A stretch of DNA of 64,000 nucleotides from a virus (Duplodnaviria > Heunggongvirae > Uroviricota > Caudoviricetes). The notes under the pieces are model-generated. The model worked only from the letters and a program-made list of their open reading frames with translations, did not search any database and was not told where the DNA came from. Location of the stretch: the IMG/VR virus record IMGVR_UViG_3300033067_000531; one strand, given 5' to 3'. Position numbers and translations under genes: made by a program. The number at the start of each line of letters is the position of its first letter. Positions within the stretch are counted from its first letter, which is position 1. This document shows, piece after piece, positions 1-30,474 of the stretch.

Positions 1-2968
1 AATAGTATTCAATATTACCAATACGCTTTTCGATATTGGCAATATCTTGCATAGTGTAACGCTTATGCAATACCTTTTCAATCGAAAGACTGGATGATAC
101 ACCAGCTGGTGTTTCTGTTGGAATGTAACCTGTGTATGGTTCGTGTGTCAAGTTGGCGATAACCAATGAACCATCTGGTTCCGCAGGGAACAATGGTACC
201 AAAGATGGTGCACCTTCGATAACTTGGAATGATTTGTCCTTAGACAATACCAATTTGTCTTTACGACCAAGGTAATATGTGTAGTCACATTCGAAAATTG
301 TTTGGTCTACTGGTGGAAGAACACCAACAAAGGCATTAGGTGCACCAGAATAGTGGTAGTCGAAATCAACTTGTGCATTTTTTCTCGATGGACGGAAATC
401 AACTGTGTCACGTAATGAGTAAACTTTACCAGAAGAACTTCTGTATGTTGGAATACTCATGTAAGAAGTTTCTGGATTAGGTGATTGTGTGTACGATTCA
501 ACAGAGAAATAACCATCACCACCAGTGTGTTGGTAGTAATCCAAGAACACCAAAATGTTACCACGTGGAATTGGTGCACCAGGTTTTAATGTGATGCTTG
601 CGTGGTCGTAGAATGTGTCACGTTGACCATCATCAAAGATGTAGTGGTTCGTAACATCATGTGCTGGGTTATTGTACATCGCAATATCGGGTAGAGTACC
701 GGAAGCGAATGTGTCAATGATTTTAACGATGCGTTTCACATCGGACAAGTACAAACTTTGTTTTTGTCCTGGTCCCAACAAACCAGCCTTCTCAATGTAA
801 ACTTGACCTGATGAACCTGCTGTGTCGTCCACATATGTCCAGTAGTTTACGTTTGTACCAGAACCATCGTTAATGATTTGTGTTGTATTTGCTTGAACCA
901 AGTTCTTGTACTTCATTACATAACTTGCGTTGTCGGCAGTCTCAACATATGTCTTGGCAATAACAATTGCGTTGAATGGTGATGTAAGACCTGAAGCAGC
1001 TGTTGCAGTGAACGTGGCAATAGTTGCGTCAAAGTTTAATGATGCTGAACGACCAGTACCAACCCACTCAATAACTTGACCTGTACTCTTAGAGATAATG
1101 GTAAAGTTTTGTTTGATTAGACTTGTGCTGAGTTGACTATTTACCGCACCCAAGTGACGGATGTAATTAGAAACAGAACTAGGAATAGAAACTGTACCTT
1201 GTACACCACCACTGTATGATTGGAACGATACGTCAGGGAATACTTGTTGTGTGGTATACACAGCGTTGGTCAACTCGGCAACGTATGGGTTACCCAAATT
1301 AAACAACAACTCTTTCGAGTTCAAGTTCTGCAATACAGTATCACCATTAACTCTACCTGTGGTTGCAATGGCAGCCTTACCAATTACTTGGTAACTGTCG
1401 TTCACCGACAAGATACAATCAATATCTTTGGTGTCGAAGTTTAGTGTGAATACAGATGCTGTAGTTGGTGTTGTTGTCCATGGTTGGTTAACTGTGGCAA
1501 CTTTGGTTGTTCCGTTGTATGCAGTAATTGTTCTGAAGTCACCGGCACTTGGACCGTTTGTGATAGAAATATTCACACCAACATATGCATCAGTTGCTGT
1601 TGCGAAGGTTGTTGGTAATGTGATTGTCGATGCACCACCACCTGTTGCATTGGCTGTCGGTGCTTTGTTGGTGATATTGTGTACGTATGCACGGTAAACA
1701 TATGTGTTGGCATCTGTGTCACTTGATGCGTGGTCAAAAACCAAACCACGAATCAGACCAGAACCAACGATGGTTGTGGAATAAGATGCACTTGCAGTGT
1801 TTACGTTTGCACTATCAACACAGTGGAAATCAATACTTTGTGGAGTTCCTGTGTCGAAGAAAGATGTGTTCGCACCTTTAACATTATCAACATAGAAGTA
1901 TGGACCGAAGTCGATAACAACTGGATTGTTTACCAAGTTTGCTGTTGTTCTTGCACGGTTGGAAACCAAATCAATTGGTGTGGTGTTTTCAACACGGTAA
2001 CCGTGAACGTAAGCCAAACCTTTACCAATAGACATGGTATATTTTGTTGAGTCTACGTTTGTTTTTGGTGTCAACATGAAGTCATTAACAACATAGTCAC
2101 CATTGGTTTCATAGTCACGTTTAGCGAAGTAGTCGTCAATAACGTTGTAAACCGAACCGTCAACCATCTTTTGAATTTCACCATCAACGATACGAACCAA
2201 TTCAACAAAGTTTTGGTCGTCACCGAATTGGATAGGACGAGAATCCAAAGTCAAACCGATGAAGTAACGGTCTGCGCCTGGTGCCTGATAGTTGGATGCA
2301 CCTACAGCTGGATCCAATAGAGAAACGTCATCAACATAATCGTAGATAGTTTCTGTGATAGTCAAACCAACTCGTCTGGTTGGTGTGTTGTCGTACTTGT
2401 CAACCACGATAGTTGATGGTTGAATCTGTACGAAGTTACCCAAAACATAGAATACACCTTCAGCAATAGATGCTGTGGAAGAAAGACCTGTTGCATCTTG
2501 GCCAATAGCCTGTACTGCCAAATTGGAGTTAACGTCATAGATAACGTCACCGTCAGTAAAGTGTTCACCTGACTTATAAGAAACAATCAATGTTGCTGGG
2601 TCTGTACCAGAACCTGCTGTTGCCTGAATAACTTGTGCAACAACCGAACCATCAGCATTTCTAACCAACAAACCAGAGTTGGTTGTTGCATCATACCACT
2701 GAGTAATATCAATAGACACGTTATTGTATGTGTCGTTCAACTTGATATAGTTACAGTTGAAGTTGGTTGTTACCTGACCACCAGTAACAGGAGAGTTTTG
2801 CTTGAAGATGTTATCAGCAAACTTTGTGATTTGGTCCTGTAGGATGGTTTGTGCCTGTGTTAATTCTCTTGCTTGAACTGCACGACCAGGTTTGAACAAG
2901 ATACGATGAAAGTTTTTTGTTTGGTCAAAATCATCGTAATATGGATCAACGTTAAAATCTAGTGGCAT
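1..2968 (-). CDS. Large virion structural protein (baseplate/tail-fibre-like), 3'-partial; start ATG at 2968-2966 and the ORF runs past the window start
   Basis: ATG at 2966-2968 on the minus strand; my translation stays open and protein-like for >900 codons. Only short scattered plus-strand ORFs occur here, consistent with antisense noise. It sits at the distal end of the baseplate gene array. Confidence 0.55.
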   Translation of the reverse strand, partial: MPLDFNVDPYYDDFDQTKNFHRILFKPGRAVQARELTQAQTILQDQITKFADNIFKQNSPVTGGQVTTNFNCNYIKLNDTYNNVSIDITQWYDATTNSGLLVRNADGSVVAQVIQATAGSGTDPATLIVSYKSGEHFTDGDVIYDVNSNLAVQAIGQDATGLSSTASIAEGVFYVLGNFVQIQPSTIVVDKYDNTPTRRVGLTITETIYDYVDDVSLLDPAVGASNYQAPGADRYFIGLTLDSRPIQFGDDQNFVELVRIVDGEIQKMVDGSVYNVIDDYFAKRDYETNGDYVVNDFMLTPKTNVDSTKYTMSIGKGLAYVHGYRVENTTPIDLVSNRARTTANLVNNPVVIDFGPYFYVDNVKGANTSFFDTGTPQSIDFHCVDSANVNTASASYSTTIVGSGLIRGLVFDHASSDTDANTYVYRAYVHNITNKAPTANATGGGASTITLPTTFATATDAYVGVNISITNGPSAGDFRTITAYNGTTKVATVNQPWTTTPTTASVFTLNFDTKDIDCILSVNDSYQVIGKAAIATTGRVNGDTVLQNLNSKELLFNLGNPYVAELTNAVYTTQQVFPDVSFQSYSGGVQGTVSIPSSVSNYIRHLGAVNSQLSTSLIKQNFTIISKSTGQVIEWVGTGRSASLNFDATIATFTATAASGLTSPFNAIVIAKTYVETADNASYVMKYKNLVQANTTQIINDGSGTNVNYWTYVDDTAGSSGQVYIEKAGLLGPGQKQSLYLSDVKRIVKIIDTFASGTLPDIAMYNNPAHDVTNHYIFDDGQRDTFYDHASITLKPGAPIPRGNILVFLDYYQHTGGDGYFSVESYTQSPNPETSYMSIPTYRSSSGKVYSLRDTVDFRPSRKNAQVDFDYHYSGAPNAFVGVLPPVDQTIFECDYTYYLGRKDKLVLSKDKSFQVIEGAPSLVPLFPAEPDGSLVIANLTHEPYTGYIPTETPAGVSSSLSIEKVLHKRYTMQDIANIEKRIGNIEYY

Positions 2969-16310: not shown

Positions 16311-17311
16311 GTTTTTGCTCTATTTTCCAATTCATCAATCATGTCTCTGTCTAACAATTCGATTTCTCGGAACGATAGTGACATAGTTGTTTGTACAGGT
16401 GCACCATCACTTAATGCTGACCAACCATTTGGTGCATAGTTAACATCAACATTTTGCAATGCACATCTTAGTACAGGCGGAACATTTGGATTTGGTACAC
16501 CATTGAAAAAGAAACCTAAATCAAATACTGATGGTGGTTTCCAGAAAAATCCAGCTAGACCAGTTTGTTTTGTTGGTGCAGCTGCTCGTTTGAAAAGACG
16601 TATAATTTCTCTCACATTCGCAGCCTCATCGGGTGAAACAGGTGTAAATGTGAATTGCAACTCAAACTCTCTGAAATCAATACCTTCAAACAACATTTGT
16701 TGTTGTGGATTGAATGTGTAACCTAATTTTTTACCAATCAATTTTGCGGCGTTGTTGTTGACCATGGATGTGATGGCAGTAGAAATTTTACCAACAACTG
16801 GTGTTGAATTGATTGCTTCCGCTAAACTCAACTTATCATATTGTGCTTGATAATCAAAACTTAAAGTGTCTGGCATATAAAGGCGAATGGTGGTCAATTT
16901 ATCATCAACCGTTTCTGGTTGAGTATTAATTGCTCCAGTACCTAGGCGACCGAACATTGAAGCGCCTATATTACTTAATGTCTCTACTTTATTTTCACTG
17001 TGATATACACTGGAAACACCAGATTGTAGTTCACTGAATTTTTGTTTAGTATAATTCAGAATTTCTTCTGCATTAGTTTTGAATGGTTTAATATCACGTA
17101 TATTAAACTGTATTGCATGACCTTTATCGAAAGAATCCAAATCCTTAGGATAAGCAATAGATGTTGGATTATAAGGATTGTTTTGCAGACTCGATAACGG
17201 ACCTTTTACCTCAACGTTAGTTACTGTGCCCCATGAACGAACTTCACCTTTCTGAACTGGACTCAGTGGTGTATTATCTACTCTAGATTGTGTGGTTTGG
17301 ATATCGGCCAT
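16307..17311 (-). CDS. Baseplate/tail-tube junction protein, gp48/gp54-like
   Basis: 334 aa; head of the minus-strand baseplate operon, divergent from the gp4 gene; synteny only. Confidence 0.35.
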   Translation of the reverse strand: MADIQTTQSRVDNTPLSPVQKGEVRSWGTVTNVEVKGPLSSLQNNPYNPTSIAYPKDLDSFDKGHAIQFNIRDIKPFKTNAEEILNYTKQKFSELQSGVSSVYHSENKVETLSNIGASMFGRLGTGAINTQPETVDDKLTTIRLYMPDTLSFDYQAQYDKLSLAEAINSTPVVGKISTAITSMVNNNAAKLIGKKLGYTFNPQQQMLFEGIDFREFELQFTFTPVSPDEAANVREIIRLFKRAAAPTKQTGLAGFFWKPPSVFDLGFFFNGVPNPNVPPVLRCALQNVDVNYAPNGWSALSDGAPVQTTMSLSFREIELLDRDMIDELENRAKT

Positions 17312-17313
17312 GA

Positions 17314-17775
17314 TTGTTTAAAAAAAGATTATACATAGTATTTATGGCATATTCTGGAATATTCAAACCTAAAAATCCTCGCAAATACATTGGTGACCAC
17401 ACCAATATCATCTGGCGTTCCACGTGGGAATGTCGTGTTATGACTTGGTTGGACAACAATCCAAACGTTATTTCGTGGGCATCTGAAGAACTTATCATAC
17501 CCTACGTTTCTCCTGTGGATGGTAGGTGGCATAGGTATTTCCCAGACTTTTTGGTTAAAGTGAACACACAACAGGGTCCTAAAACCATGTTGATTGAGGT
17601 CAAACCTAAGAAACAAACACAACCACCCAAACAACAAAAACGTGTAACCAAGAGGTATATCACCGAAGTTGCAACTTGGGGTGTCAATCAGGCCAAATGG
17701 AAGGCCGCAGAAGAATACTGCTTGGATCGTGGTTGGGAGTTCAAAGTCATCACAGAAGACCATCTAGGACTCTAA
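17314..17775 (+). CDS. 4: Head completion protein gp4
   Basis: 'WHRYFPDFLVK...LIEVKPKKQTQ...NQAKWKAAEEYCLDRGWEFKVITE' matches T4 gp4 'HRYYPDF...EVKP...NQAKWEAA'; 153 aa. Confidence 0.65.
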   Translation: MFKKRLYIVFMAYSGIFKPKNPRKYIGDHTNIIWRSTWECRVMTWLDNNPNVISWASEELIIPYVSPVDGRWHRYFPDFLVKVNTQQGPKTMLIEVKPKKQTQPPKQQKRVTKRYITEVATWGVNQAKWKAAEEYCLDRGWEFKVITEDHLGL

Positions 17776-23642: not shown

Positions 23643-24137
23643 TTATTTAGGCGTCCTGAACAAGGTTTCTAGTTCAATAATGGTAGACTTTGCATCTTTG
23701 TGATGAATAGCAATACCACCCGCATTACGCCAATCTTCAATGACACTGTAAGTATCATCAATGATTACTGCATCAGGTTGAGCATACTTATACTTGTGTC
23801 GTTTGCCTGGAACAAAGATAGGATCAGGCCAATAAATGTCATGGTTACCCAACCATTCTTTCTTCTGTTCACTGATTGTATCATATACTTCTTCATAAGC
23901 GGTAGATGATAGAATCTGTTTTGGTTCATCCAAAATGGTCAGATATGCTCTGAGGATGAAAAAGTCTTTCATGGGTTCTAACGTAGCGAATTGCTTTGTC
24001 AGAATGAAATCGGAGAAGTTGGTACGGAACTTAGACCTACGCACTTGTTCTGGCACTTCACCATATAGTTCTACATAACGTTTCTCGAAGTCACATAGAA
24101 CACCGTCCATGTCAACATAAATCTTACTGATTTCCAT
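23643..24137 (-). CDS. HAD-family 5'(3')-deoxyribonucleotidase-like protein
   Basis: N-terminal 'IYVDMDGVLCDF' HAD motif I (DxDGVL); 164 aa. Confidence 0.55.
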   Translation of the reverse strand: MEISKIYVDMDGVLCDFEKRYVELYGEVPEQVRRSKFRTNFSDFILTKQFATLEPMKDFFILRAYLTILDEPKQILSSTAYEEVYDTISEQKKEWLGNHDIYWPDPIFVPGKRHKYKYAQPDAVIIDDTYSVIEDWRNAGGIAIHHKDAKSTIIELETLFRTPK

Positions 24138-24738
24138 AGTGTTCTTTCACAATAGCCTTTAATTTGGCCTTATCATAATTTACAAAAGGTGTATACTTTT
24201 CCAGTTTCAGTTTCCAATTTGGCCAGATAATATCGTCTTTGATTTTCTTTGACCACATTGGGAAGAAACCCATCAAATCATTCAGTATAACCACAGTCTC
24301 AATCATAATGTTACGTTGCATCATTTCCTCTAGTAACCTAGGGTAATGGTCGTCAACAACACTAATCATGTCCTTAGCGGCATACTTGTCGAATAGGTAA
24401 ATTATATCTTGTTCGAACTGGTATGTCAAGCGTTGAATTCTTGTTTGCCACTTGGTATAGTTCTGTTCACCTTCAAGACCAGATATATCACCGATCCACT
24501 TGATATCGGATTCTAGGAAGTTAGCAATATAAAACGAACGTAAATCATCTAAATTGTACTTCCTGGAGAGTTTATAGAATGAGTACTTTGCCTTATTTTT
24601 GGCAAAGCTATCCTTACTCACATTCGTCTTGCCGTTGTACTTAAAGTAATCGTAAGATGGTGATGTGAAATGTAATCTCAATGCATTATATAAAGCGAAG
24701 GCAGAAAATCCACTGCCTTCTTCAAGTTGAAAACTCAT
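24124..24738 (-). CDS. 59: Helicase loader gp59
   Basis: 'KYSFYKLSRKYNLDDLRSFYIANFLESDIKWIGDIS' matches T4 gp59 'KYFFQKLSEKYKLKELALIFISNLVANQDAWIGDIS'; adjacent to gp32 as in T4. Confidence 0.7.
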   Translation of the reverse strand: MSFQLEEGSGFSAFALYNALRLHFTSPSYDYFKYNGKTNVSKDSFAKNKAKYSFYKLSRKYNLDDLRSFYIANFLESDIKWIGDISGLEGEQNYTKWQTRIQRLTYQFEQDIIYLFDKYAAKDMISVVDDHYPRLLEEMMQRNIMIETVVILNDLMGFFPMWSKKIKDDIIWPNWKLKLEKYTPFVNYDKAKLKAIVKEHYGNQ

Positions 24739-24956
24739 ACTGGTAATCTAGCGGTCTTCTTTAATAGATTTGCTTCTTGTGCTTCTTCACGAAGTTTTGA
24801 TTTAAGTGCGGCCGAAATAAGTGTTGACGCTACATCAACTTCAAGGCCTGTTTGTTCACAGTGATGAATGATTGCTTCTAGTCGAGTCATGCTCTCTTTG
24901 GTTGCAATTTCATTAATCAAATCACTGAATTCACTAATTTCATTTTTTGTAGGCAT
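24735..24956 (-). CDS. Small acidic protein, possibly gp33-like late transcription co-activator
   Basis: 73 aa; position next to gp59 as in T4 (59-33-32 region); no motif confirmation. Confidence 0.3.
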   Translation of the reverse strand: MPTKNEISEFSDLINEIATKESMTRLEAIIHHCEQTGLEVDVASTLISAALKSKLREEAQEANLLKKTARLPV

Positions 24957-25432
24957 TAACGTGTATAAAATAGATGGTTACCGATACGTGCAACATACTT
25001 CAAGTTCCAACCAGGATTAACCTTGTTGTTGTGATAGTACATTGATTTTGTTTTGTGAATTGTATCATGTAGTTTGTGTTCTGTCAAGGCCTTCCTTGCC
25101 ACAATCATACATTCTTCCCATGCATATTTGTTGTTGACGGCTTTAACCTTTTCACCAACCCATGAGAATTGATATGTGTTACCAGTCTTTTGGTATACCA
25201 CTTCACACACAGTCTTTGGATACAATGGACTTTGTGTTCTATTCATTGTTACTTGCGCTACGGCCAGTTTTCCCTCAAATGGTTCTGAGGCTGCTTCGTA
25301 GTAAATGTTTCTTGCCATACATTCAATCTGTTGACTTAGATTGATTGAAACATGTTGTTTTTCAGTCAATGGCTCTTGGTGAGAAATCACCGGAAACAAT
25401 GCGAATAGTGTAATTAGGATGAATTTCTTCAT
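24956..25432 (-). CDS. Secreted cell-wall hydrolase, SleB/CwlJ (Hydrolase_2) family
   Basis: Signal peptide MKKFILITLFALFPVIS; 'ARNIYYEAASEPFEGKLAVAQVTMNR' is the Hydrolase_2 signature. Confidence 0.65.
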   Translation of the reverse strand: MKKFILITLFALFPVISHQEPLTEKQHVSINLSQQIECMARNIYYEAASEPFEGKLAVAQVTMNRTQSPLYPKTVCEVVYQKTGNTYQFSWVGEKVKAVNNKYAWEECMIVARKALTEHKLHDTIHKTKSMYYHNNKVNPGWNLKYVARIGNHLFYTR

Positions 25433-25444
25433 TACTTCTCCTTT

Positions 25445-25619
25445 AAATTGTGTTTGGTGCTTCTGTTACGAGGTGCACCAAACGAAACCCTAGTCAGCGC
25501 TTAGGCTGCCAATGCGTAACTTTCGTCATTTGCATTTATTTTGATTTGCTTGATTTACGGTCATCGCCTACCGTGTTGCCGTCTCCACTATCTACCCCTG
25601 TCGAAACCATGGCATCCCC
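25445..25619 (-). ncRNA. ssrA: Two-piece tmRNA (ssrA), coding piece: 5' acceptor strand GGGGAUG, D-like UUUCGACAGGGG, tag frame, 3' hairpin
   Basis: Minus-strand GGGGATGCCATGGTTTCGACAGGGG resembles the canonical tmRNA 5' end GGGGCUGAUUCUGGAUUCGACGGG. About 85 nt downstream is GCA AAT GAC GAA AGT TAC GCA TTG GCA GCC TAA = ANDESYALAA. It ends in a GTTTGGTGC...GCACCAAAC hairpin. Confidence 0.7.
25501..25533 (-). other. tmRNA tag reading frame (resume codon GCA to TAA): ANDESYALAA
   Basis: Direct translation; matches proteobacterial tag consensus (E. coli ANDENYALAA). Confidence 0.7.
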
Positions 25620-25707
25620 ATCAAAAACATACTAAGGTGAAATGAACTTACTAAGTAGAGGTTCCGGCTTACCAATCCCGAACTTTTTACAGTTTTAAGT
25701 ATGTTTT

Positions 25708-25790
25708 TGGTGGAGATGGGGGGAGTCGAACCCCCGTCCAGAAGTCCTTCGCTTTGAAGGGATTACAACAATTTCTTTAATTATACAACA
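25708..25790 (-). ncRNA. ssrA: Two-piece tmRNA (ssrA), acceptor piece: T-arm GGGGG-UUCGACU-CCCCC, 3' acceptor strand CAUCUCC, discriminator A, encoded CCA
   Basis: Minus strand ...GGACGGGGGTTCGACTCCCCCCATCTCCACCA. The 3' strand pairs with GGGGAUG of the coding piece, giving G3:U70. There is no D-arm, no anticodon arm and no 5' acceptor strand upstream, so this is not a tRNA. It lies upstream of the coding piece, as in permuted ssrA genes. Confidence 0.7.
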
Positions 25791-25794
25791 AAAC

Positions 25795-26475
25795 CTATCG
25801 CTTGGCAATAGAATCGTGGTAAAATTTTATATAGTCGAATAAAGTATTTATGTGGTCTTCGGTTTTCTCGACAAATAACAAGGGTTCCTCATCATCCACC
25901 GCCATGATAATGACAATCTGTTCGATAGGTTGGCCAACCAGTTCCTCATACATCATCGCATATGCAACACACTGAGCAAAGTAATTGTCAATGTCCTCAC
26001 GTTTCTTGATACGTTTGGAAGTCTTAAAGTCAATTACAGATAACTTACCATCAAACTCACCAATACAATCAACACGACCCGCCATACCAATCTTAACTGA
26101 CCACAAGGCCTGTTCTTGGAAATGTATGTTGTTAATACGATTCAATAAAGGTTTGATAGACTTAAACATCTGTAATGCATCCGGCATAACCTTCATCAGG
26201 TACTTTGGATCATTATTCAGATATTTTTCACATAAGGTGTGTAGGTTGGTACCACGACCAGAGGCAATACGTGATATCTTGTTGGCTTCTTCTTCACCTA
26301 CACGTTTACGCCATTTCATAATGGCCTCTTTACCTTTCGCACCAATAACAGTGGTGACCGAAGGCAACTTAACGCCGTCTGGTGTTACATAGTATCGTTT
26401 GCCATCAGGAAACGTTTGCGATTTTAAATCTTTCAAATCACACGGCGGACAATAATTAAAAATCATATTATTCAA
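25795..26475 (-). CDS. PD-(D/E)xK nuclease (Cas4/YqaJ-like putative exonuclease)
   Basis: 'GRVDCIGEFDGKLSVIDFKTSK' (D...D/ExK) and 'YFAQCVAYAMMYEE' (QxxxY) motifs. Confidence 0.6.
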   Translation of the reverse strand: MNNMIFNYCPPCDLKDLKSQTFPDGKRYYVTPDGVKLPSVTTVIGAKGKEAIMKWRKRVGEEEANKISRIASGRGTNLHTLCEKYLNNDPKYLMKVMPDALQMFKSIKPLLNRINNIHFQEQALWSVKIGMAGRVDCIGEFDGKLSVIDFKTSKRIKKREDIDNYFAQCVAYAMMYEELVGQPIEQIVIIMAVDDEEPLLFVEKTEDHINTLFDYIKFYHDSIAKR

Positions 26476-27103
26476 AAGTTAGGTGAAAAACAAAACACAA
26501 TCTAGTTTCTTTAGAGTTGTGTTCTCCTACAGCATGCCACAATTCTGGTGTATGTATGACCAAATCACCACTTCTAGGTTTAACATAGAACTTATCTTCT
26601 TCCAGAAACGAACTATGTTTTAATCCTGTTTGACCATTGCGTATGAAGATTAAATCGGATCCATTTTCTGGATTATTCACATAGAAAATGGCATTCAAGT
26701 CTGTGTGACCGTTATAATCTTTGGTTTTGTCGTACTGAAAACCAACATGATTATGACACAAACCCTGAGATTTGTCAAACATTTGATTCATCCAGGATTT
26801 CTTGACATTTACCCTCGTCACATCCTCACCAAACATTTCCTTGTATGCCAATAACGATTGGTTCGTTATCCACTGCATCAGTGGTTGTGCATCAGGTATG
26901 TTTGCTGGTCCTAGTAAAGGATTGTTTTCGGTGGTTTCACCTTGACCGTATTGTGAATCCCAATCACCACCACGTGTGCGGTTCAATACTTCAGGTAATG
27001 AGAAGATTCTTTCGGTTGTTTTTCGCAGTTGTTTATTTTTGTATAGTGTTTCATCATTACACTTGGTAACAAAAATTTTACCGTTAAACACTTCCAGTAT
27101 CAT
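26468..27103 (-). CDS. 2OG-Fe(II) oxygenase superfamily protein
   Basis: 211 aa; HxD...H-type jelly-roll signature region 'GDLVIHTPELWHAVGE'; overlapping junctions with neighbours. Confidence 0.5.
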   Translation of the reverse strand: MILEVFNGKIFVTKCNDETLYKNKQLRKTTERIFSLPEVLNRTRGGDWDSQYGQGETTENNPLLGPANIPDAQPLMQWITNQSLLAYKEMFGEDVTRVNVKKSWMNQMFDKSQGLCHNHVGFQYDKTKDYNGHTDLNAIFYVNNPENGSDLIFIRNGQTGLKHSSFLEEDKFYVKPRSGDLVIHTPELWHAVGEHNSKETRLCFVFHLTFE

Positions 27104-27707
27104 TTCTCACTCGTATATTCATAACAATACAAATACGATTCTCATCACTCAAATTTGGTTCCGTTGAATGTATGACGTAGTTTGGAAACAAGATTAACAT
27201 TCCAGGTTTAGGTTTAATCTCATAGAATGTTCTACCTGGTCGACCCCATTTATCCGCAGCAAGGTGTTTATCGTGCCATGGAATATCCACATGACCACGC
27301 GGATCACATAACATGATACTACCACTATTCTCCGGAATAGTAACATAGAACACACCAACCAATTCAGCACCAAAGTGTGTATGTGGTGTGTCCCACTCAT
27401 TAGGATACAATACAGATTGTTTTGTTTTGATTGTTGGAGTAAATTCTGGCCAGCCAGAGTCCTTTTTCACAACTTCAACAGCCTCAAGAATCTTCTCTTT
27501 GAGTTTACTGATTCCATAACCATTAAAATCTAAAAAGTCATGTTGATAAATGTCAAACTTATCACCATCAATCTGTTTTTGTTTATCTATAAATCTACTG
27601 AAATTAGAACCATCCATTTCAATAGACTTAACGAGATACTTGTCATCTTCACTCAAGTCGAATGTCCACACAGGAGTGGCAAACATCTGTTTTAAATCAT
27701 ATTTCAT
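27084..27707 (-). CDS. 2OG-Fe(II) oxygenase superfamily protein (second, divergent copy)
   Basis: 207 aa; 'PHTHFGAELVGVFYV...GHVDIPWHDKH...YVIHSTEPN' His/Asp-His triad pattern. Confidence 0.5.
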   Translation of the reverse strand: MKYDLKQMFATPVWTFDLSEDDKYLVKSIEMDGSNFSRFIDKQKQIDGDKFDIYQHDFLDFNGYGISKLKEKILEAVEVVKKDSGWPEFTPTIKTKQSVLYPNEWDTPHTHFGAELVGVFYVTIPENSGSIMLCDPRGHVDIPWHDKHLAADKWGRPGRTFYEIKPKPGMLILFPNYVIHSTEPNLSDENRICIVMNIRVRNDTGSV

Positions 27708-28315
27708 CGTATAATGTTTATGGCAGTTTCAACGTCTTTTAAGATTCTATCGTGTTGTGTGATATCCTCACACTCTTGCATAGTTACAAGGTGACTGTAA
27801 TCAATATCAATAATTTCATCACTGTCTTGTACTTGTTTTGATACACCAACAATGTCAATATTGATACTCAACATACCTTCGTTTTGGATAGACCTAAAGA
27901 TATTAGCATGAACCACTCGTTCGAGTTTATTCAAACGTCTTACCAAGACTTGACCAATTGGACTAAACTTAACAGGTTTCAAAGAGAAACCCATAAGTGG
28001 TAAACTGTCCATCTTATGTGGACAGATAAAAAATACAGGTACTCTTTGATGCAAGGTTGTATCAGCCAACTTAGAAATTTCTTCCGCTGGTGGCAAACTA
28101 CCCTTCGAATAGACTTCAAAAGGAACTATCGCAGTGGTTGTTACCGATTCACCTTTTGAATTGCGTACGGTAATATACATCAATGATGGTTCGGTGACCA
28201 GATTATACTCTGTCAAGTGTTGTAACATCCATTCTTCTGGACGTAGAACCCTGATGTTGAGAATATCGGTTCTTTCTTTTGCTTTAGATAAGAATTGTTT
28301 TAGTTCTGGATTCAT
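27704..28315 (-). CDS. Hypothetical protein (203 aa) in rSAM/oxygenase operon
   Basis: ORF track; 4-nt overlaps at both ends (translational coupling). Confidence 0.5.
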   Translation of the reverse strand: MNPELKQFLSKAKERTDILNIRVLRPEEWMLQHLTEYNLVTEPSLMYITVRNSKGESVTTTAIVPFEVYSKGSLPPAEEISKLADTTLHQRVPVFFICPHKMDSLPLMGFSLKPVKFSPIGQVLVRRLNKLERVVHANIFRSIQNEGMLSINIDIVGVSKQVQDSDEIIDIDYSHLVTMQECEDITQHDRILKDVETAINIIR

Positions 28316-29760
28316 TTTTGTTCTACTCTAGATTGCCCATAAACATCTACATCATCAATCTTACCTACAATTTCAGTCACAACCTTTATGGGGATGATTT
28401 TAGTTTTCTGTTTTTCTTTGTGTTCGTAAGTTGTACCCCAAATGTCAACTCGGTCAAGTGGCAAATCACCACCCTGAATCAACATAGGAATATAACCTGT
28501 CATCTTTTCCATACTCAAAGCAAACAATGATACATTATCTGAATATGCTGTGTCACAAGTCTTTTCCCAATATTCACCTTCGAGGTACATACAAGAACCC
28601 TTACATAGGTGTAATACCGGACAAGTAGAACATTCCTTTCTGTTCTTCCAGTGTGTCACAGATTTGATTGCAACATTATCATAGTCGTCTAGATTACCAC
28701 CCAAATGAGATTCACCGTTCTTGGAGTTCTCTTTGACTGACACGTTTTGACAAGTGATAACGTTACCTTTAAGGTCAATAGCAATCACATTCTCCATGTC
28801 CATACCACACTTCTGTCCAAGATATTTGGACTCATTATGTGATAAGACACTATCTGTAAAACTATTAATCTTATTCAAGATAGCATCAAAATTAATTTGG
28901 CCATCAGTTGAACGAATGTCATTGAACGCTGTTTTTCTATATTCAAAATGTTCTTGGTATGTACCTAAAGAATTATTGATACCATCAGCATCATATGCAT
29001 CAACCATCGTACCTTCACCGATGGAAACAGTTTCATCACCAGTAAATTCTTTGAACCACTCATACACATCTTTACGACTTGTATTTTGTCTGTTCATCAT
29101 TACATTGAAACTGATTCGACCTTGTGGGTGCATAGAGTTATAGAACTCCATCAGAATCTTCTTTTTGGATTCGTCAACAAAAGGATCAGGACCACGGACA
29201 TGTTGATTAGGACCATCATGTGAGATACCAACAGAAAAACCCATGTAGTACAACCATGCACAGATATCTTTGGTCAACAACGAACCATTGGTCACCATAC
29301 TAAATTGTGGTTTGTTCTTCCAATGGTCGAACTTTTCCACGATGGCTTCTGTCAAAGGCTTCAGAGTCTTCCAATAGACAAGAGGTTCACCACCCCAGAA
29401 TTCAATCTTCAAACCTTTTTGTTCATCAAAGTTTAATACATCCAGTTTTTGTAGGAATGATTCGATATCTTTCTTACTTGTTTCTGGTGGACGTTCGACA
29501 AATTTCTGTGAACAATAATCACAAGAATAGTTGCAAGATAGACCAAGTTGAATCTTTAGAATTTGAATATCTTTAGACTTCTTTAGTGGATGATTTTTAT
29601 CGAAGGCACGGGTTGGTTCTCCTGAATCAACATAACGTTGTTCAACAGGACTCTCAAAGATATAGCCTTCTTCATCACTCAAAACATTCGACTCATTATC
29701 GTAGTAAAATGTCTTAGAGTCTCCATCAATCATTCTCAAAGCATTAATAGTAAATTTCAT
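28312..29760 (-). CDS. Radical SAM enzyme with C-terminal SPASM/twitch auxiliary-cluster domain
   Basis: 'CNYSCDYC' CxxxCxxC rSAM motif; C-terminal 'CSTCPVLHLCKGSC' plus upstream Cys ('GQKCGMD', 'ITCQN') typical of SPASM maturases. Confidence 0.7.
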   Translation of the reverse strand: MKFTINALRMIDGDSKTFYYDNESNVLSDEEGYIFESPVEQRYVDSGEPTRAFDKNHPLKKSKDIQILKIQLGLSCNYSCDYCSQKFVERPPETSKKDIESFLQKLDVLNFDEQKGLKIEFWGGEPLVYWKTLKPLTEAIVEKFDHWKNKPQFSMVTNGSLLTKDICAWLYYMGFSVGISHDGPNQHVRGPDPFVDESKKKILMEFYNSMHPQGRISFNVMMNRQNTSRKDVYEWFKEFTGDETVSIGEGTMVDAYDADGINNSLGTYQEHFEYRKTAFNDIRSTDGQINFDAILNKINSFTDSVLSHNESKYLGQKCGMDMENVIAIDLKGNVITCQNVSVKENSKNGESHLGGNLDDYDNVAIKSVTHWKNRKECSTCPVLHLCKGSCMYLEGEYWEKTCDTAYSDNVSLFALSMEKMTGYIPMLIQGGDLPLDRVDIWGTTYEHKEKQKTKIIPIKVVTEIVGKIDDVDVYGQSRVEQK

Positions 29761-29768
29761 AATAACCC

Positions 29769-30437
29769 TTATTTGTTGTTGTTCTTATCATCCAGTTCTT
29801 TAATTGCTTCAATTAATAACGGTATAAGTTTGTAATAATCAACGATATTATATTTACCATCAATCTTAATGTTACTCAGTCCCACTGGGTAATGTTTCTC
29901 AATGTCTTGAGCAGACACACCAGCAGACAATGAGGTATCTAATCCTAATCGTTCAGCTTCGGCGTTGCCTTCAAATATAAAACCAGTTAAGGACTTAACA
30001 ATGTCTAATGCACCAGTGATATCAGACTTTCTGTTTTTCAATCTATCATCGGACCAGAAACAGTTACAGTTGCAATTACAGTTGTAAACACGACTCTTTG
30101 ATGTGGTACAATTATACACTGGATCACAGTTACAGTTGGCTTGATAATACTTTTTAGTATCACAATTTCTACAATTCGTCAGAGCAACTTGAATACAGTT
30201 TGCACATTGAATATTTCCTGTGCAATTACAATTCGTTACTGCTGGGTTTGGAGCTGAATCGCAGTTTCCATCCATGTTTCTCTGATAGTATGTTTTTCCA
30301 TGCAAACTATCATAGTTGTTTGGATTGCCTTTTGTGTTATCTTTAACCCAACTCATTGCCAATTGAGCGGTGCTGGGTAGTACCGCTTCTTCATTTATGT
30401 TATGTGCGGCAATTTGTCCGGATGCTGGTAAAGTCAT
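29769..30437 (-). CDS. Cys-rich (Asn-Cys repeat) protein fused to C-terminal intramolecular-chaperone auto-cleaving domain (Peptidase_S74-like)
   Basis: 14 Cys in about 75 aa, 13 of them as NC dipeptides (NCNCTGNIQCANC...NCNCNCNCFW). Followed by 'SDDRLKNRKSDITGALDIVKSLTGFIF...SAGVSAQDIEKHYP...DYYKLIPLLIEAIKELD', the endosialidase/tail-fibre chaperone motif SDxRLK. Confidence 0.6.
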   Translation of the reverse strand: MTLPASGQIAAHNINEEAVLPSTAQLAMSWVKDNTKGNPNNYDSLHGKTYYQRNMDGNCDSAPNPAVTNCNCTGNIQCANCIQVALTNCRNCDTKKYYQANCNCDPVYNCTTSKSRVYNCNCNCNCFWSDDRLKNRKSDITGALDIVKSLTGFIFEGNAEAERLGLDTSLSAGVSAQDIEKHYPVGLSNIKIDGKYNIVDYYKLIPLLIEAIKELDDKNNNK

Positions 30438-30474
30438 TTGTTAATGTCCTAATAAAATACTGTGGATATTTATC

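Follow-up and report, generated by a model that had tools for sequence, protein, structure and literature searches.

An Asn-Cys-repeat protein paired with a radical SAM/SPASM enzyme in a T4-like phage: a candidate pathway for crosslinking fibre tips

Exposed virion structures can be reinforced by covalent bonds or by metals: the HK97 chainmail is made of autocatalytic isopeptide bonds, and the tip of T4 gp37 depends on metal coordination at His-x-His iron sites. Crosslinks of another kind are made by radical S-adenosylmethionine (SAM) enzymes with a SPASM domain. PapB and QhpD form thioethers from Cys to Asp or Glu, and the SPASM enzyme QhpD does so in a small Cys-containing subunit that is retained in a larger assembly. 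Here we analyse a cassette of five genes on the minus strand of a 64,000-nucleotide stretch of viral DNA (IMG/VR record IMGVR_UViG_3300033067_000531; this whole stretch is called the window below), in which the gene of an Asn-Cys-repeat protein (the NC protein; 30437>29769, 222 aa) precedes that of a radical SAM/SPASM enzyme (the rSAM; 29760>28312, 482 aa). We propose that the NC protein is a fibre-type precursor and the rSAM its predicted crosslinking maturase, acting at the tip of a phage fibre, and we give this explanation a probability of about 60%.

Among described enzymes, the ranthipeptide maturases PapB (freyrasin) and NxxcB (NxxC) likewise combine radical SAM and SPASM domains and act on Cys-rich ribosomal substrates, and PapB is the best NCBIfam match of the window enzyme. 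The product of NxxcB is a Cys-to-Asn beta-thioether, and Ala, Gln and Asp can replace Asn as acceptors (PMC9389541); these four acceptors are the residues that precede 93% of the Cys in the proteins considered here. Ranthipeptide systems modify a short leader-core peptide, whereas the candidate substrate here is a fibre-type protein of 128 to 600 aa, with an X-Cys dipeptide repeat at its extreme C-terminus and a phage or prophage fibre context. Ranthipeptides and sactipeptides are defined by a short precursor whose leader is bound by a recognition element (RRE) for ribosomally synthesised peptides with post-translational modifications (RiPPs); the precursors here measure 126-616 aa and no RRE was detected for them, which sets them outside that definition. 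QhpD, which acts on QhpC, the gamma subunit of quinohemoprotein amine dehydrogenase, is the third-best NCBIfam match at 80 bits, but the cutoff is 453 bits, and the window has no dehydrogenase, heme subunit or QhpG orthologue. A flavoenzyme in relatives of the cassette and the terminal Trp of their substrates loosely recall QhpG and the Trp-derived cofactor of the Qhp system, an analogy that we regard as speculation. SCIFF/CteB and CcpM share with the window a Cys-rich ribosomal substrate and a SPASM rSAM, and CteB (5wgg) is the second-closest solved structure; in this case the rSAM core alone aligns (residues 57-183), and the substrate motifs, size and genomic context differ.

On the side of the virion, the HK97 chainmail and the T4 gp37 tip are functional analogues, in that an exposed structure is reinforced covalently or by metal, and they differ from what is predicted here, namely a dedicated radical enzyme encoded beside the fibre gene. 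The S74 (ICA) domains of endosialidase endoNF, the T5 L-shaped fibre pb1 and GA-1 gp12 are C-terminal domains with a Ser-Lys dyad that trimerise and self-cleave (PMC8326128). In the NC protein the corresponding domain follows a 70-residue Asn-Cys core and not a long triple beta-helix or shaft, and the precursor has just 222 aa. T4-like phages with several 2-oxoglutarate (2OG)-Fe(II) dioxygenases and Trp-halogenase-like genes were described earlier, their substrate being unknown, and secondary-metabolite synthesis was proposed for them with no substrate named (Iyer et al. 2010, PMC2938197). Relatives of the window carry the same mix of genes; unlike those cyanophage arrays, they have a ribosomal candidate substrate and an rSAM maturase co-conserved with the oxygenases. 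rSAM cassettes beside VrlC have also been noted in the host-recognition clusters of pelagimyophages. The full-text literature that we searched does not describe an rSAM paired with Asn-Cys-terminated fibres; most subscription-journal papers lay outside that search, and an earlier description is possible. What appears to be new is the class of substrate, the motif and the biological setting; the class of enzyme and the general type of reaction are known already.

Pairing of the Asn-Cys gene with the radical SAM gene

The relatives of the rSAM comprise more than 574 IMG/VR contigs and 191 genome contigs, of which the best 80 of each were examined. Ralstonia phage RSP15, Achromobacter phages JWF and 2-1 and the jumbo phages RP12 and RP31 were added, and the dereplicated set holds 154 loci (79 viral and 75 genome loci, cited by L numbers where needed). 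In 65 of the 79 viral loci, the rSAM gene has an NC-rich gene on its own strand no more than 100 nt away (34 upstream, 31 downstream). Such a gene is found near the rSAM gene in 58 of the 75 genome loci, 0.1-4.5 kb upstream in 54 and directly adjacent in four, and the genome loci that lack it are mostly truncated contigs. When only complete neighbourhoods are considered, a strict motif, ([N/D/A]-C)x3, is present in 61 of 83; after rescue of 18 misses due to variant repeats or gene-calling errors, an NC gene is present in at least 79 of 83. The motif is also local, since in the related loci 104 of 1437 genes near the rSAM gene carry it, versus 1 of 652 genes farther off. The genomic pairing of the two genes is thus near-universal. 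It is kept in T4-like contigs, in RSP15, JWF and 2-1 and in many Burkholderiales prophages, while the neighbours vary (phoH, the exonuclease, fibre genes and the F30 family of ~1300-1640-aa proteins, possibly VrlC-like). The window enzyme is 46% identical to RSP15 ORF045, 42% to JWF gp030, ~42% to its homologue in Achromobacter phage 2-1 and 26% to those of RP12 and RP31. A nucleotide search with the region against 50,697 phage records gave no matches, and relatives were reached by protein-level searches only.

The original prediction described a translationally coupled operon of five minus-strand genes running on into a nuclease gene and a transfer-messenger RNA (tmRNA). All five open reading frames (ORFs) are found in the ORF list at the coordinates given for them, and four independent metagenome samples carry an identical rSAM and the same five-gene order according to independent gene callers. 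The junctions consist of one 8-nt gap, two 4-nt ATGA overlaps and one 20-nt overlap. Overlapping or tight junctions are common throughout the window, however (for example 24124-24738 / 24735-24956 / 24956-25432), and because such packing is the norm, gene spacing alone does not demonstrate functional coupling; we rejected it as evidence in its own right. It is the content of the cassette that exceeds chance: the NC protein is the only (NC)n ORF in the 64-kb window. The extension of the operon did not hold. In relatives the exonuclease gene lies on the other side or elsewhere, and neither it nor the tmRNA is co-conserved with the cassette, so both were dropped as members; on this comparison they are mere neighbours. 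As for conservation of the cluster across related genomes, the pair of NC gene and rSAM gene stands, the exonuclease and tmRNA fall away, and the oxygenases are frequent but optional.

Candidate substrate, maturase and proposed crosslink

The NC protein has three parts. The N-terminal domain (residues 1 to ~55, MTLPASGQI...YYQRN; 30273..30437) is conserved in the T4-like family (alignment A4), with M1, P4 and I9 invariant and T2, S6, G7 and K36 nearly so, and has no Pfam or PHROG match. It is followed by the Asn-Cys-rich core (residues 58-128; 30054..30266), which ends NCNCNCNCFW and includes an (NC)4 run at 30060-30083. Thirteen of its 14 Cys are preceded by Asn, in agreement with the Asn-Cys repeat recognised at the outset, and A4 shows invariant or near-invariant N-C pairs; among 136 family members, Cys follows Asn in 69% of cases, Ala in 10%, Asp in 9% and Gln in 5%. 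The third part had been overlooked: residues 129-222 (29772..30053) form a Peptidase_S74 chaperone/autocleavage domain (PF13884, 25.8 bits versus a cutoff of 22, residues 129-184). The match begins at model position 1, which is S129, and K134 at +5 completes the Ser-Lys dyad. Moreover, the SDDRLK motif of the NC protein aligns with the fibre S74 domains of L042, L095 and L070, and PHROG tail-fibre C-termini also match the 222-aa protein.

In S74 domains the Ser-Lys(+5) dyad cleaves on the N-terminal side of the Ser, which happens in the trimer only (PMC8326128). Because of this, the mature NC protein should be a trimer ending at W128; the cut is predicted at W128|S129, leaving ...NCNCNCNCFW as the new C-terminus. 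Many A4 homologues without an S74 domain stop natively at the aligned Trp (...CACACW), and others retain ...CFW|SDDxLK. In the AlphaFold model the predicted local distance difference test score (pLDDT) is 82-88 for residues 1-50 and ~30 for the core, with a mean of 50, which is too poor for a fold search; the failure to model the core is consistent with a need for trimerisation or modification.

The same end is reached in other ways elsewhere. The repeat lies at the native stop or within 6 aa of it in 53 of 105 distinct proteins, and many more end ...CACACW; otherwise it is followed by an S74 domain, as in the window, L009, L015 and L016, or by a Hint domain, as in L105 and in JWF gp028 (...NCNCDCNCNCS|C-FPAGT). 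The latter, a tail fibre of JWF (L002, 3811-5262), carries its intein-like, self-cleaving Hint domain directly after the NCNCDCNCNCS repeat. The comparison of these native stops and predicted cleavage sites shows the repeat to be the C-terminal end of the mature chain. As three independent ways (native stop, S74, Hint) expose the same repeat, a free (X-Cys)n end would seem to be functionally required.

What kind of protein carries this end is clearest in the prophages. Their gene order is a J-type central fibre, two small structural genes, the (NC)n-ended fibre, a ~280- or ~240-aa protein, a 2OG oxygenase and the rSAM, and then the lysis genes. Matches to PHROG tail-fibre and collagen families show the NC-terminated proteins to be tail fibres. 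In Burkholderiales prophages the tail-fibre gene that carries the repeat is located 0.7-4.5 kb upstream of the rSAM gene. The repeat here ends full phage proteins, which bears out the earlier view that the substrate is a phage protein and not a small leader peptide. In L042, L095, L070, L014 and L096, a complete S74-bearing fibre directly precedes a small NC protein; the order fibre, small NC protein, rSAM is seen in several T4-like contigs and in one Polynucleobacter genome contig (L095), and by analogy recalls that of a fibre followed by a tip adhesin. The PHROG tail-fibre C-terminal matches, the prophage versions and the gene order all point indirectly to a fibre role for the NC protein of the window, and its location in the virion or fibre seems reasonably probable to us.

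The rSAM belongs to the radical SAM superfamily (PF04055, 38.3 bits versus a cutoff of 29.5) and has a SPASM domain (TIGR04085, 36.1 bits versus 27, residues 318-394), both as anticipated. The CX3CX2C [4Fe-4S] motif CNYSCDYC (C76, C80, C83; 29512..29535) is invariant in alignment A1. In the SPASM domain (28555..28809), with its pattern C318-X13-G-X4-C337 ... C377-X2-C380-X5-C386-X3-C390 ... C402, seven of seven Cys are invariant among seven homologues; this type of motif serves two auxiliary clusters. The best curated NCBIfam matches are PapB ranthipeptide (92.9 bits), geopeptide (84), QhpD and CcpM (69.7), with nif11, SCIFF and CefB also among them, all maturases that crosslink Cys in peptides or proteins, which agrees with the proposed class of enzymes maturing Cys-containing peptides. 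The closest solved structures are 8vpo, CteB and anaerobic sulfatase-maturating enzyme (anSME). A housekeeping enzyme without a SPASM domain, the possibility that would have spoken most directly against the original prediction, was not found: the SPASM domain is complete, and the PHROG match is phrog_1802 (202.9 bits) against 29.8 bits for the QueE-like PHROG, on which grounds QueE and NrdG were rejected. None of these scores allows a reaction to be transferred by homology, because all lie far under the equivalog cutoffs; PapB, the best match, reaches 92.9 bits versus the 340 bits of its family model (NF047865).

With the pairing described above, it is very likely that the NC protein is the substrate of the rSAM. 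Thioether chemistry on the NC core is somewhat favoured, because the residues before Cys match the acceptors of NxxcB, an NCNC run amounts to overlapping NxxC motifs in series, and PapB and QhpD are thioether makers. We propose the following scenario. The S74 domain of the 222-aa precursor would drive trimerisation and then cleave itself off at W128|S129, giving a fibre-type protein of ~128 aa, in which a docking domain at the N-terminus would be joined to an Asn-Cys core whose C-terminal end is (NC)4FW. The rSAM would act on this core through a 5'-deoxyadenosyl radical and its auxiliary Fe-S clusters, joining the Cys sulfur to a carbon of the neighbouring Asn (or Asp, Ala, Gln) in thioethers of the ranthipeptide/sactipeptide type. 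Formed within one chain or among the three chains, such thioethers would lock the fibre tip covalently. The two 2OG-Fe(II) oxygenases of the cassette probably hydroxylate or otherwise oxidise the NC protein, and the 203-aa protein encoded with them is probably a non-catalytic helper.

Alternative explanations

Several observations weigh against a crosslinked fibre tip. The cassette of the window sits between phoH and the exonuclease gene, outside the baseplate/fibre module. The rSAM scores far under every curated equivalog cutoff, and no RRE/PqqD domain (PF05402) was found in it or in its neighbours at E<=0.1. Oxygenases are missing from ~30% of the loci, including JWF, and the oxygenase arrays of T4-like phages often have an unrelated or unknown purpose (PMC2938197). 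Not all NC proteins look like fibre tips. A second T4-like class, ~300 aa long and with its gene immediately downstream of that of the rSAM (for example L039 2856-3758 and L053 5515-6411), has a ~170-aa C-terminal domain of the pattern SKIICxKLY...ADQxYG... with a hydrophobic, membrane-like end, and a 170-aa NC variant in L010 (7461-7973) has a transmembrane-like tail. The C-terminal parts of this class and of the L010 variant have no Pfam or PHROG match, and neither is easily fitted to a fibre tip. In jumbo phage RP12 (L003, NC_041911), an unannotated 65-aa ORF (993-1190, plus strand) ending ...YGSNCNCNCACTRGSL lies upstream of three rSAM genes, and this NC peptide resembles a classical small RiPP.

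The alternative that best accommodates these points is that the small NC protein gives rise to a RiPP-type product, diffusible or intracellular, outside the virion, such as a toxin, a metal chelator or a signalling peptide, with its 55-aa N-terminus as the leader and the cluster as an auxiliary biosynthetic island. Many T4-like versions are indeed just 126-139 aa long and have no fibre domain, the RP12 peptide adjoins its three rSAM genes, and relatives add tailoring enzymes (a Trp-halogenase-like flavoenzyme, a B12-binding rSAM, an Asp/Asn hydroxylase, a cupin). A secondary-metabolite role was moreover proposed for the dioxygenase/halogenase arrays of cyanophages (Iyer et al., PMC2938197). 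However, the window protein and several homologues bear an S74 domain, known in phages only from tailspikes, fibres and neck appendages (PMC8326128). In the prophages the repeat is the C-terminus of proteins of PHROG tail-fibre families encoded downstream of a J-type fibre, and a small NC gene is often found immediately after a fibre gene. Unlike typical leaders, the N-terminal region has a predicted folded domain, and no transporter, leader protease or RRE was seen nearby. This alternative is kept alive by the non-structural location of the cassette, the second NC class, the RP12 peptide and the absence of a detected RRE, and we consider it unlikely but worth carrying along.

A second alternative retains the fibre and gives the enzyme another task: the Asn-Cys core would be a metal-binding or disulfide-rich tip motif, like the His-x-His of T4 gp37, and the rSAM would act on a small molecule, a nucleic acid or a host protein. 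To judge from their sequence, evenly spaced Cys in a trimer could bind metal ions; the rSAM falls under all curated maturase thresholds, and the enzyme-substrate link is one that we infer. Yet same-strand pairing is near-universal in very different phages whose other neighbours all vary, the closest families of the rSAM all modify Cys-containing peptides or proteins, and the motif is absent from fibre genes both in the window and in the distant parts of related loci. We regard this explanation as quite improbable.

It is also very improbable that the rSAM is an anSME-like enzyme converting Cys to formylglycine, or performs another non-crosslinking reaction on Cys or Asn such as epimerisation or C-terminal processing. 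The anSME match does span the full length of the enzyme including SPASM (profile positions 72-388, E 4e-8), and SPASM enzymes catalyse many types of reaction (PMC9389541). The JWF homologue gp030 is deposited as 'anaerobic sulfatase-maturating enzyme' (GenBank KP202971), a label that the family scores of the window homologue do not back. Indeed, the anSME model (TIGR03942) gives 49.3 bits versus a cutoff of 349, below the thioether-forming families, and on this weak score an anSME was rejected; the 222-aa NC protein also lacks the sulfatase motif C/S-x-P/A-x-R, and no sulfatase gene was seen nearby. Finally, the idea of unrelated neighbours in a hypervariable auxiliary region, whose operon-like look would merely reflect dense phage packing, finds some comfort in the ordinary overlaps of the window and in flanks (exonuclease, tmRNA, phoH) that are not co-conserved with the cassette, but is scarcely credible given the adjacency in 65 of 79 viral loci despite shuffled surroundings and the co-occurrence of the pair in siphovirus-type prophages and an Ackermannviridae phage as well.

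Accessory genes, genomic setting and implications

The last two genes of the cassette encode the 2OG-Fe(II) oxygenases A (27707>27084, 207 aa) and B (27103>26468, 211 aa). Both had been expected to match PF13759, and both exceed its cutoff of 27 bits, with 62.0 and 33.2 bits respectively. The expectation of a TIGR02466 match fared less well, since oxygenase A lies marginally under the cutoff of 62.5 bits (60.2 bits) and oxygenase B well under it (23.6 bits). The metal residues H-x-H...H and the 2OG-binding Arg are kept in both (H109-x-H111 ... H180 and R191 in A; H117-x-H119 ... H190 and R201 in B). In the F2 oxygenase family, 114 of 145 members show H-x-H...H instead of the classical H-x-D/E...H, and six have Ala at +2. 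Oxygenases of PF13759 or related families occur within 3 kb of the rSAM gene in 34 of 45 viral loci and in 27 of 42 genome loci; as they are frequent but absent from some loci such as JWF, they appear to be optional tailoring enzymes and not part of the core. Asn/Asp hydroxylation by them is plausible, and we see even odds that they act on the NC protein too.

T4-like relatives contain further genes, namely a Trp-halogenase-family flavoenzyme (PF04820, E 1.7e-95), a B12-binding rSAM, a PF05118 Asp/Asn beta-hydroxylase-family protein and a cupin; extra tailoring genes are found for example at L004 3790-4980, L048 11793-13313, L039 4685-5464 and L058 9905-10549. The small NC proteins of such extended loci end in a conserved Trp (...CACACW), to be compared with W128 of the predicted mature protein of the window.

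Between the rSAM and the oxygenases lies the gene of the 203-aa protein (28315>27704), which consists of two divergent domains of ~100 aa each. Its family stands directly downstream of the rSAM in T4-like cassettes that have the small NC gene upstream, so that its place in the unit, claimed earlier, is confirmed as that of a conserved accessory protein and is restricted to the T4-like lineage. The family diverges fast, the start Met being its only invariant residue. The protein had no family match in any library and no convincing structural neighbour, a word-indexed homologue search returned only itself, and when profiles were compared it proved unrelated to F4 and F37, accessory families of the prophages. 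Since its AlphaFold model is in addition only moderate (pLDDT 68), we gave it neither a fold nor an RRE label, and the non-catalytic helper role suggested above is held with low confidence.

The window belongs to a T4-like myovirus, as had been claimed, with baseplate wedge and hub proteins and rIIA. Its exonuclease ORF overlaps oxygenase B by 8 nt if TTG is the start codon; independent gene callers prefer the following ATG, which lies just downstream of the oxygenase gene and gives 223 aa. The 3' end of this ORF is overlapped by the tmRNA gene (25444-25805, minus strand; Rfam RF01850, 160.9 bits; ARAGORN tag ANDESYALAA), which is of the betaproteobacterial type. The cellular relatives of the rSAM are mostly freshwater Burkholderiales, such as Limnohabitans, Polynucleobacter and Burkholderia paludis. 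Tag and relatives together suggest a betaproteobacterial, likely freshwater host, and for these reasons the phage is probably not marine, contrary to the setting first assumed. Just downstream of the tmRNA, 24956-25432 (minus strand) encodes a SleB-type cell-wall hydrolase (PF07486, E 1.5e-24) whose N-terminus bears a hydrophobic segment, probably an endolysin or a virion lysin. At the edge of the window, 2-658 (minus strand) is the end of a protein akin to the 1300-1640-aa family that adjoins fibre/rSAM cassettes in other contigs and includes RSP15 ORF044; this family may correspond to the VrlC-like host-recognition-cluster protein of pelagimyophages.

In a sigma-70 promoter scan, sites were no more frequent than in shuffles, and the canonical T4 late promoter TATAAATA does not occur in the whole 64-kb window. 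ATAAATA is found on the minus strand at 30467-30474, 36 nt upstream of the NC-protein gene, at 25845-25851, 30-50 nt upstream of the tmRNA 5' end, and at 17339-17345, 30-50 nt upstream of position 17311, where a structural operon starts. Its total count in the window is not above chance, and as a late-type promoter it is a weak hint.

Taken beyond this locus, the fibre-tip explanation would mean that phages of several unrelated morphotypes use rSAM/SPASM enzymes, often together with oxygenases, to crosslink the Asn-Cys C-termini of fibre or fibre-tip proteins, which would be a kind of modification not recognised before in the receptor-binding structures of virions; we put this generalisation forward tentatively. 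A bolder version would have the crosslinks join three fibre-tip chains or, with the terminal Trp and the flavoenzyme of relatives, build a redox or metal cofactor. If crosslinking is confirmed, some of the orphan 2OG-Fe(II) oxygenases of T4-like phages would receive their first defined substrate and pathway, and the halogenase-like and B12-rSAM genes of relatives would be given the same context. Enzyme-installed radical crosslinking would join the short list of covalent modifications of virion proteins, and the rSAM/SPASM 'peptide' maturases would be extended to full-size structural proteins. The substrates would in addition form a class of very large RiPP-like proteins overlooked at present: as RiPP mining pipelines drop precursors >600 bp (PMC10288494), NC systems would be hidden from them. 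Cultured carriers exist, namely the phages JWF, 2-1 and RSP15 and the lysogens Burkholderia paludis MSh1 and several Limnohabitans strains, and they make the hypothesis directly testable. Because fibre tips determine host range as well as environmental stability, an Asn-Cys tip that is crosslinked could have consequences for the ecology of phages of freshwater Betaproteobacteria and for the engineering of robust receptor-binding proteins.

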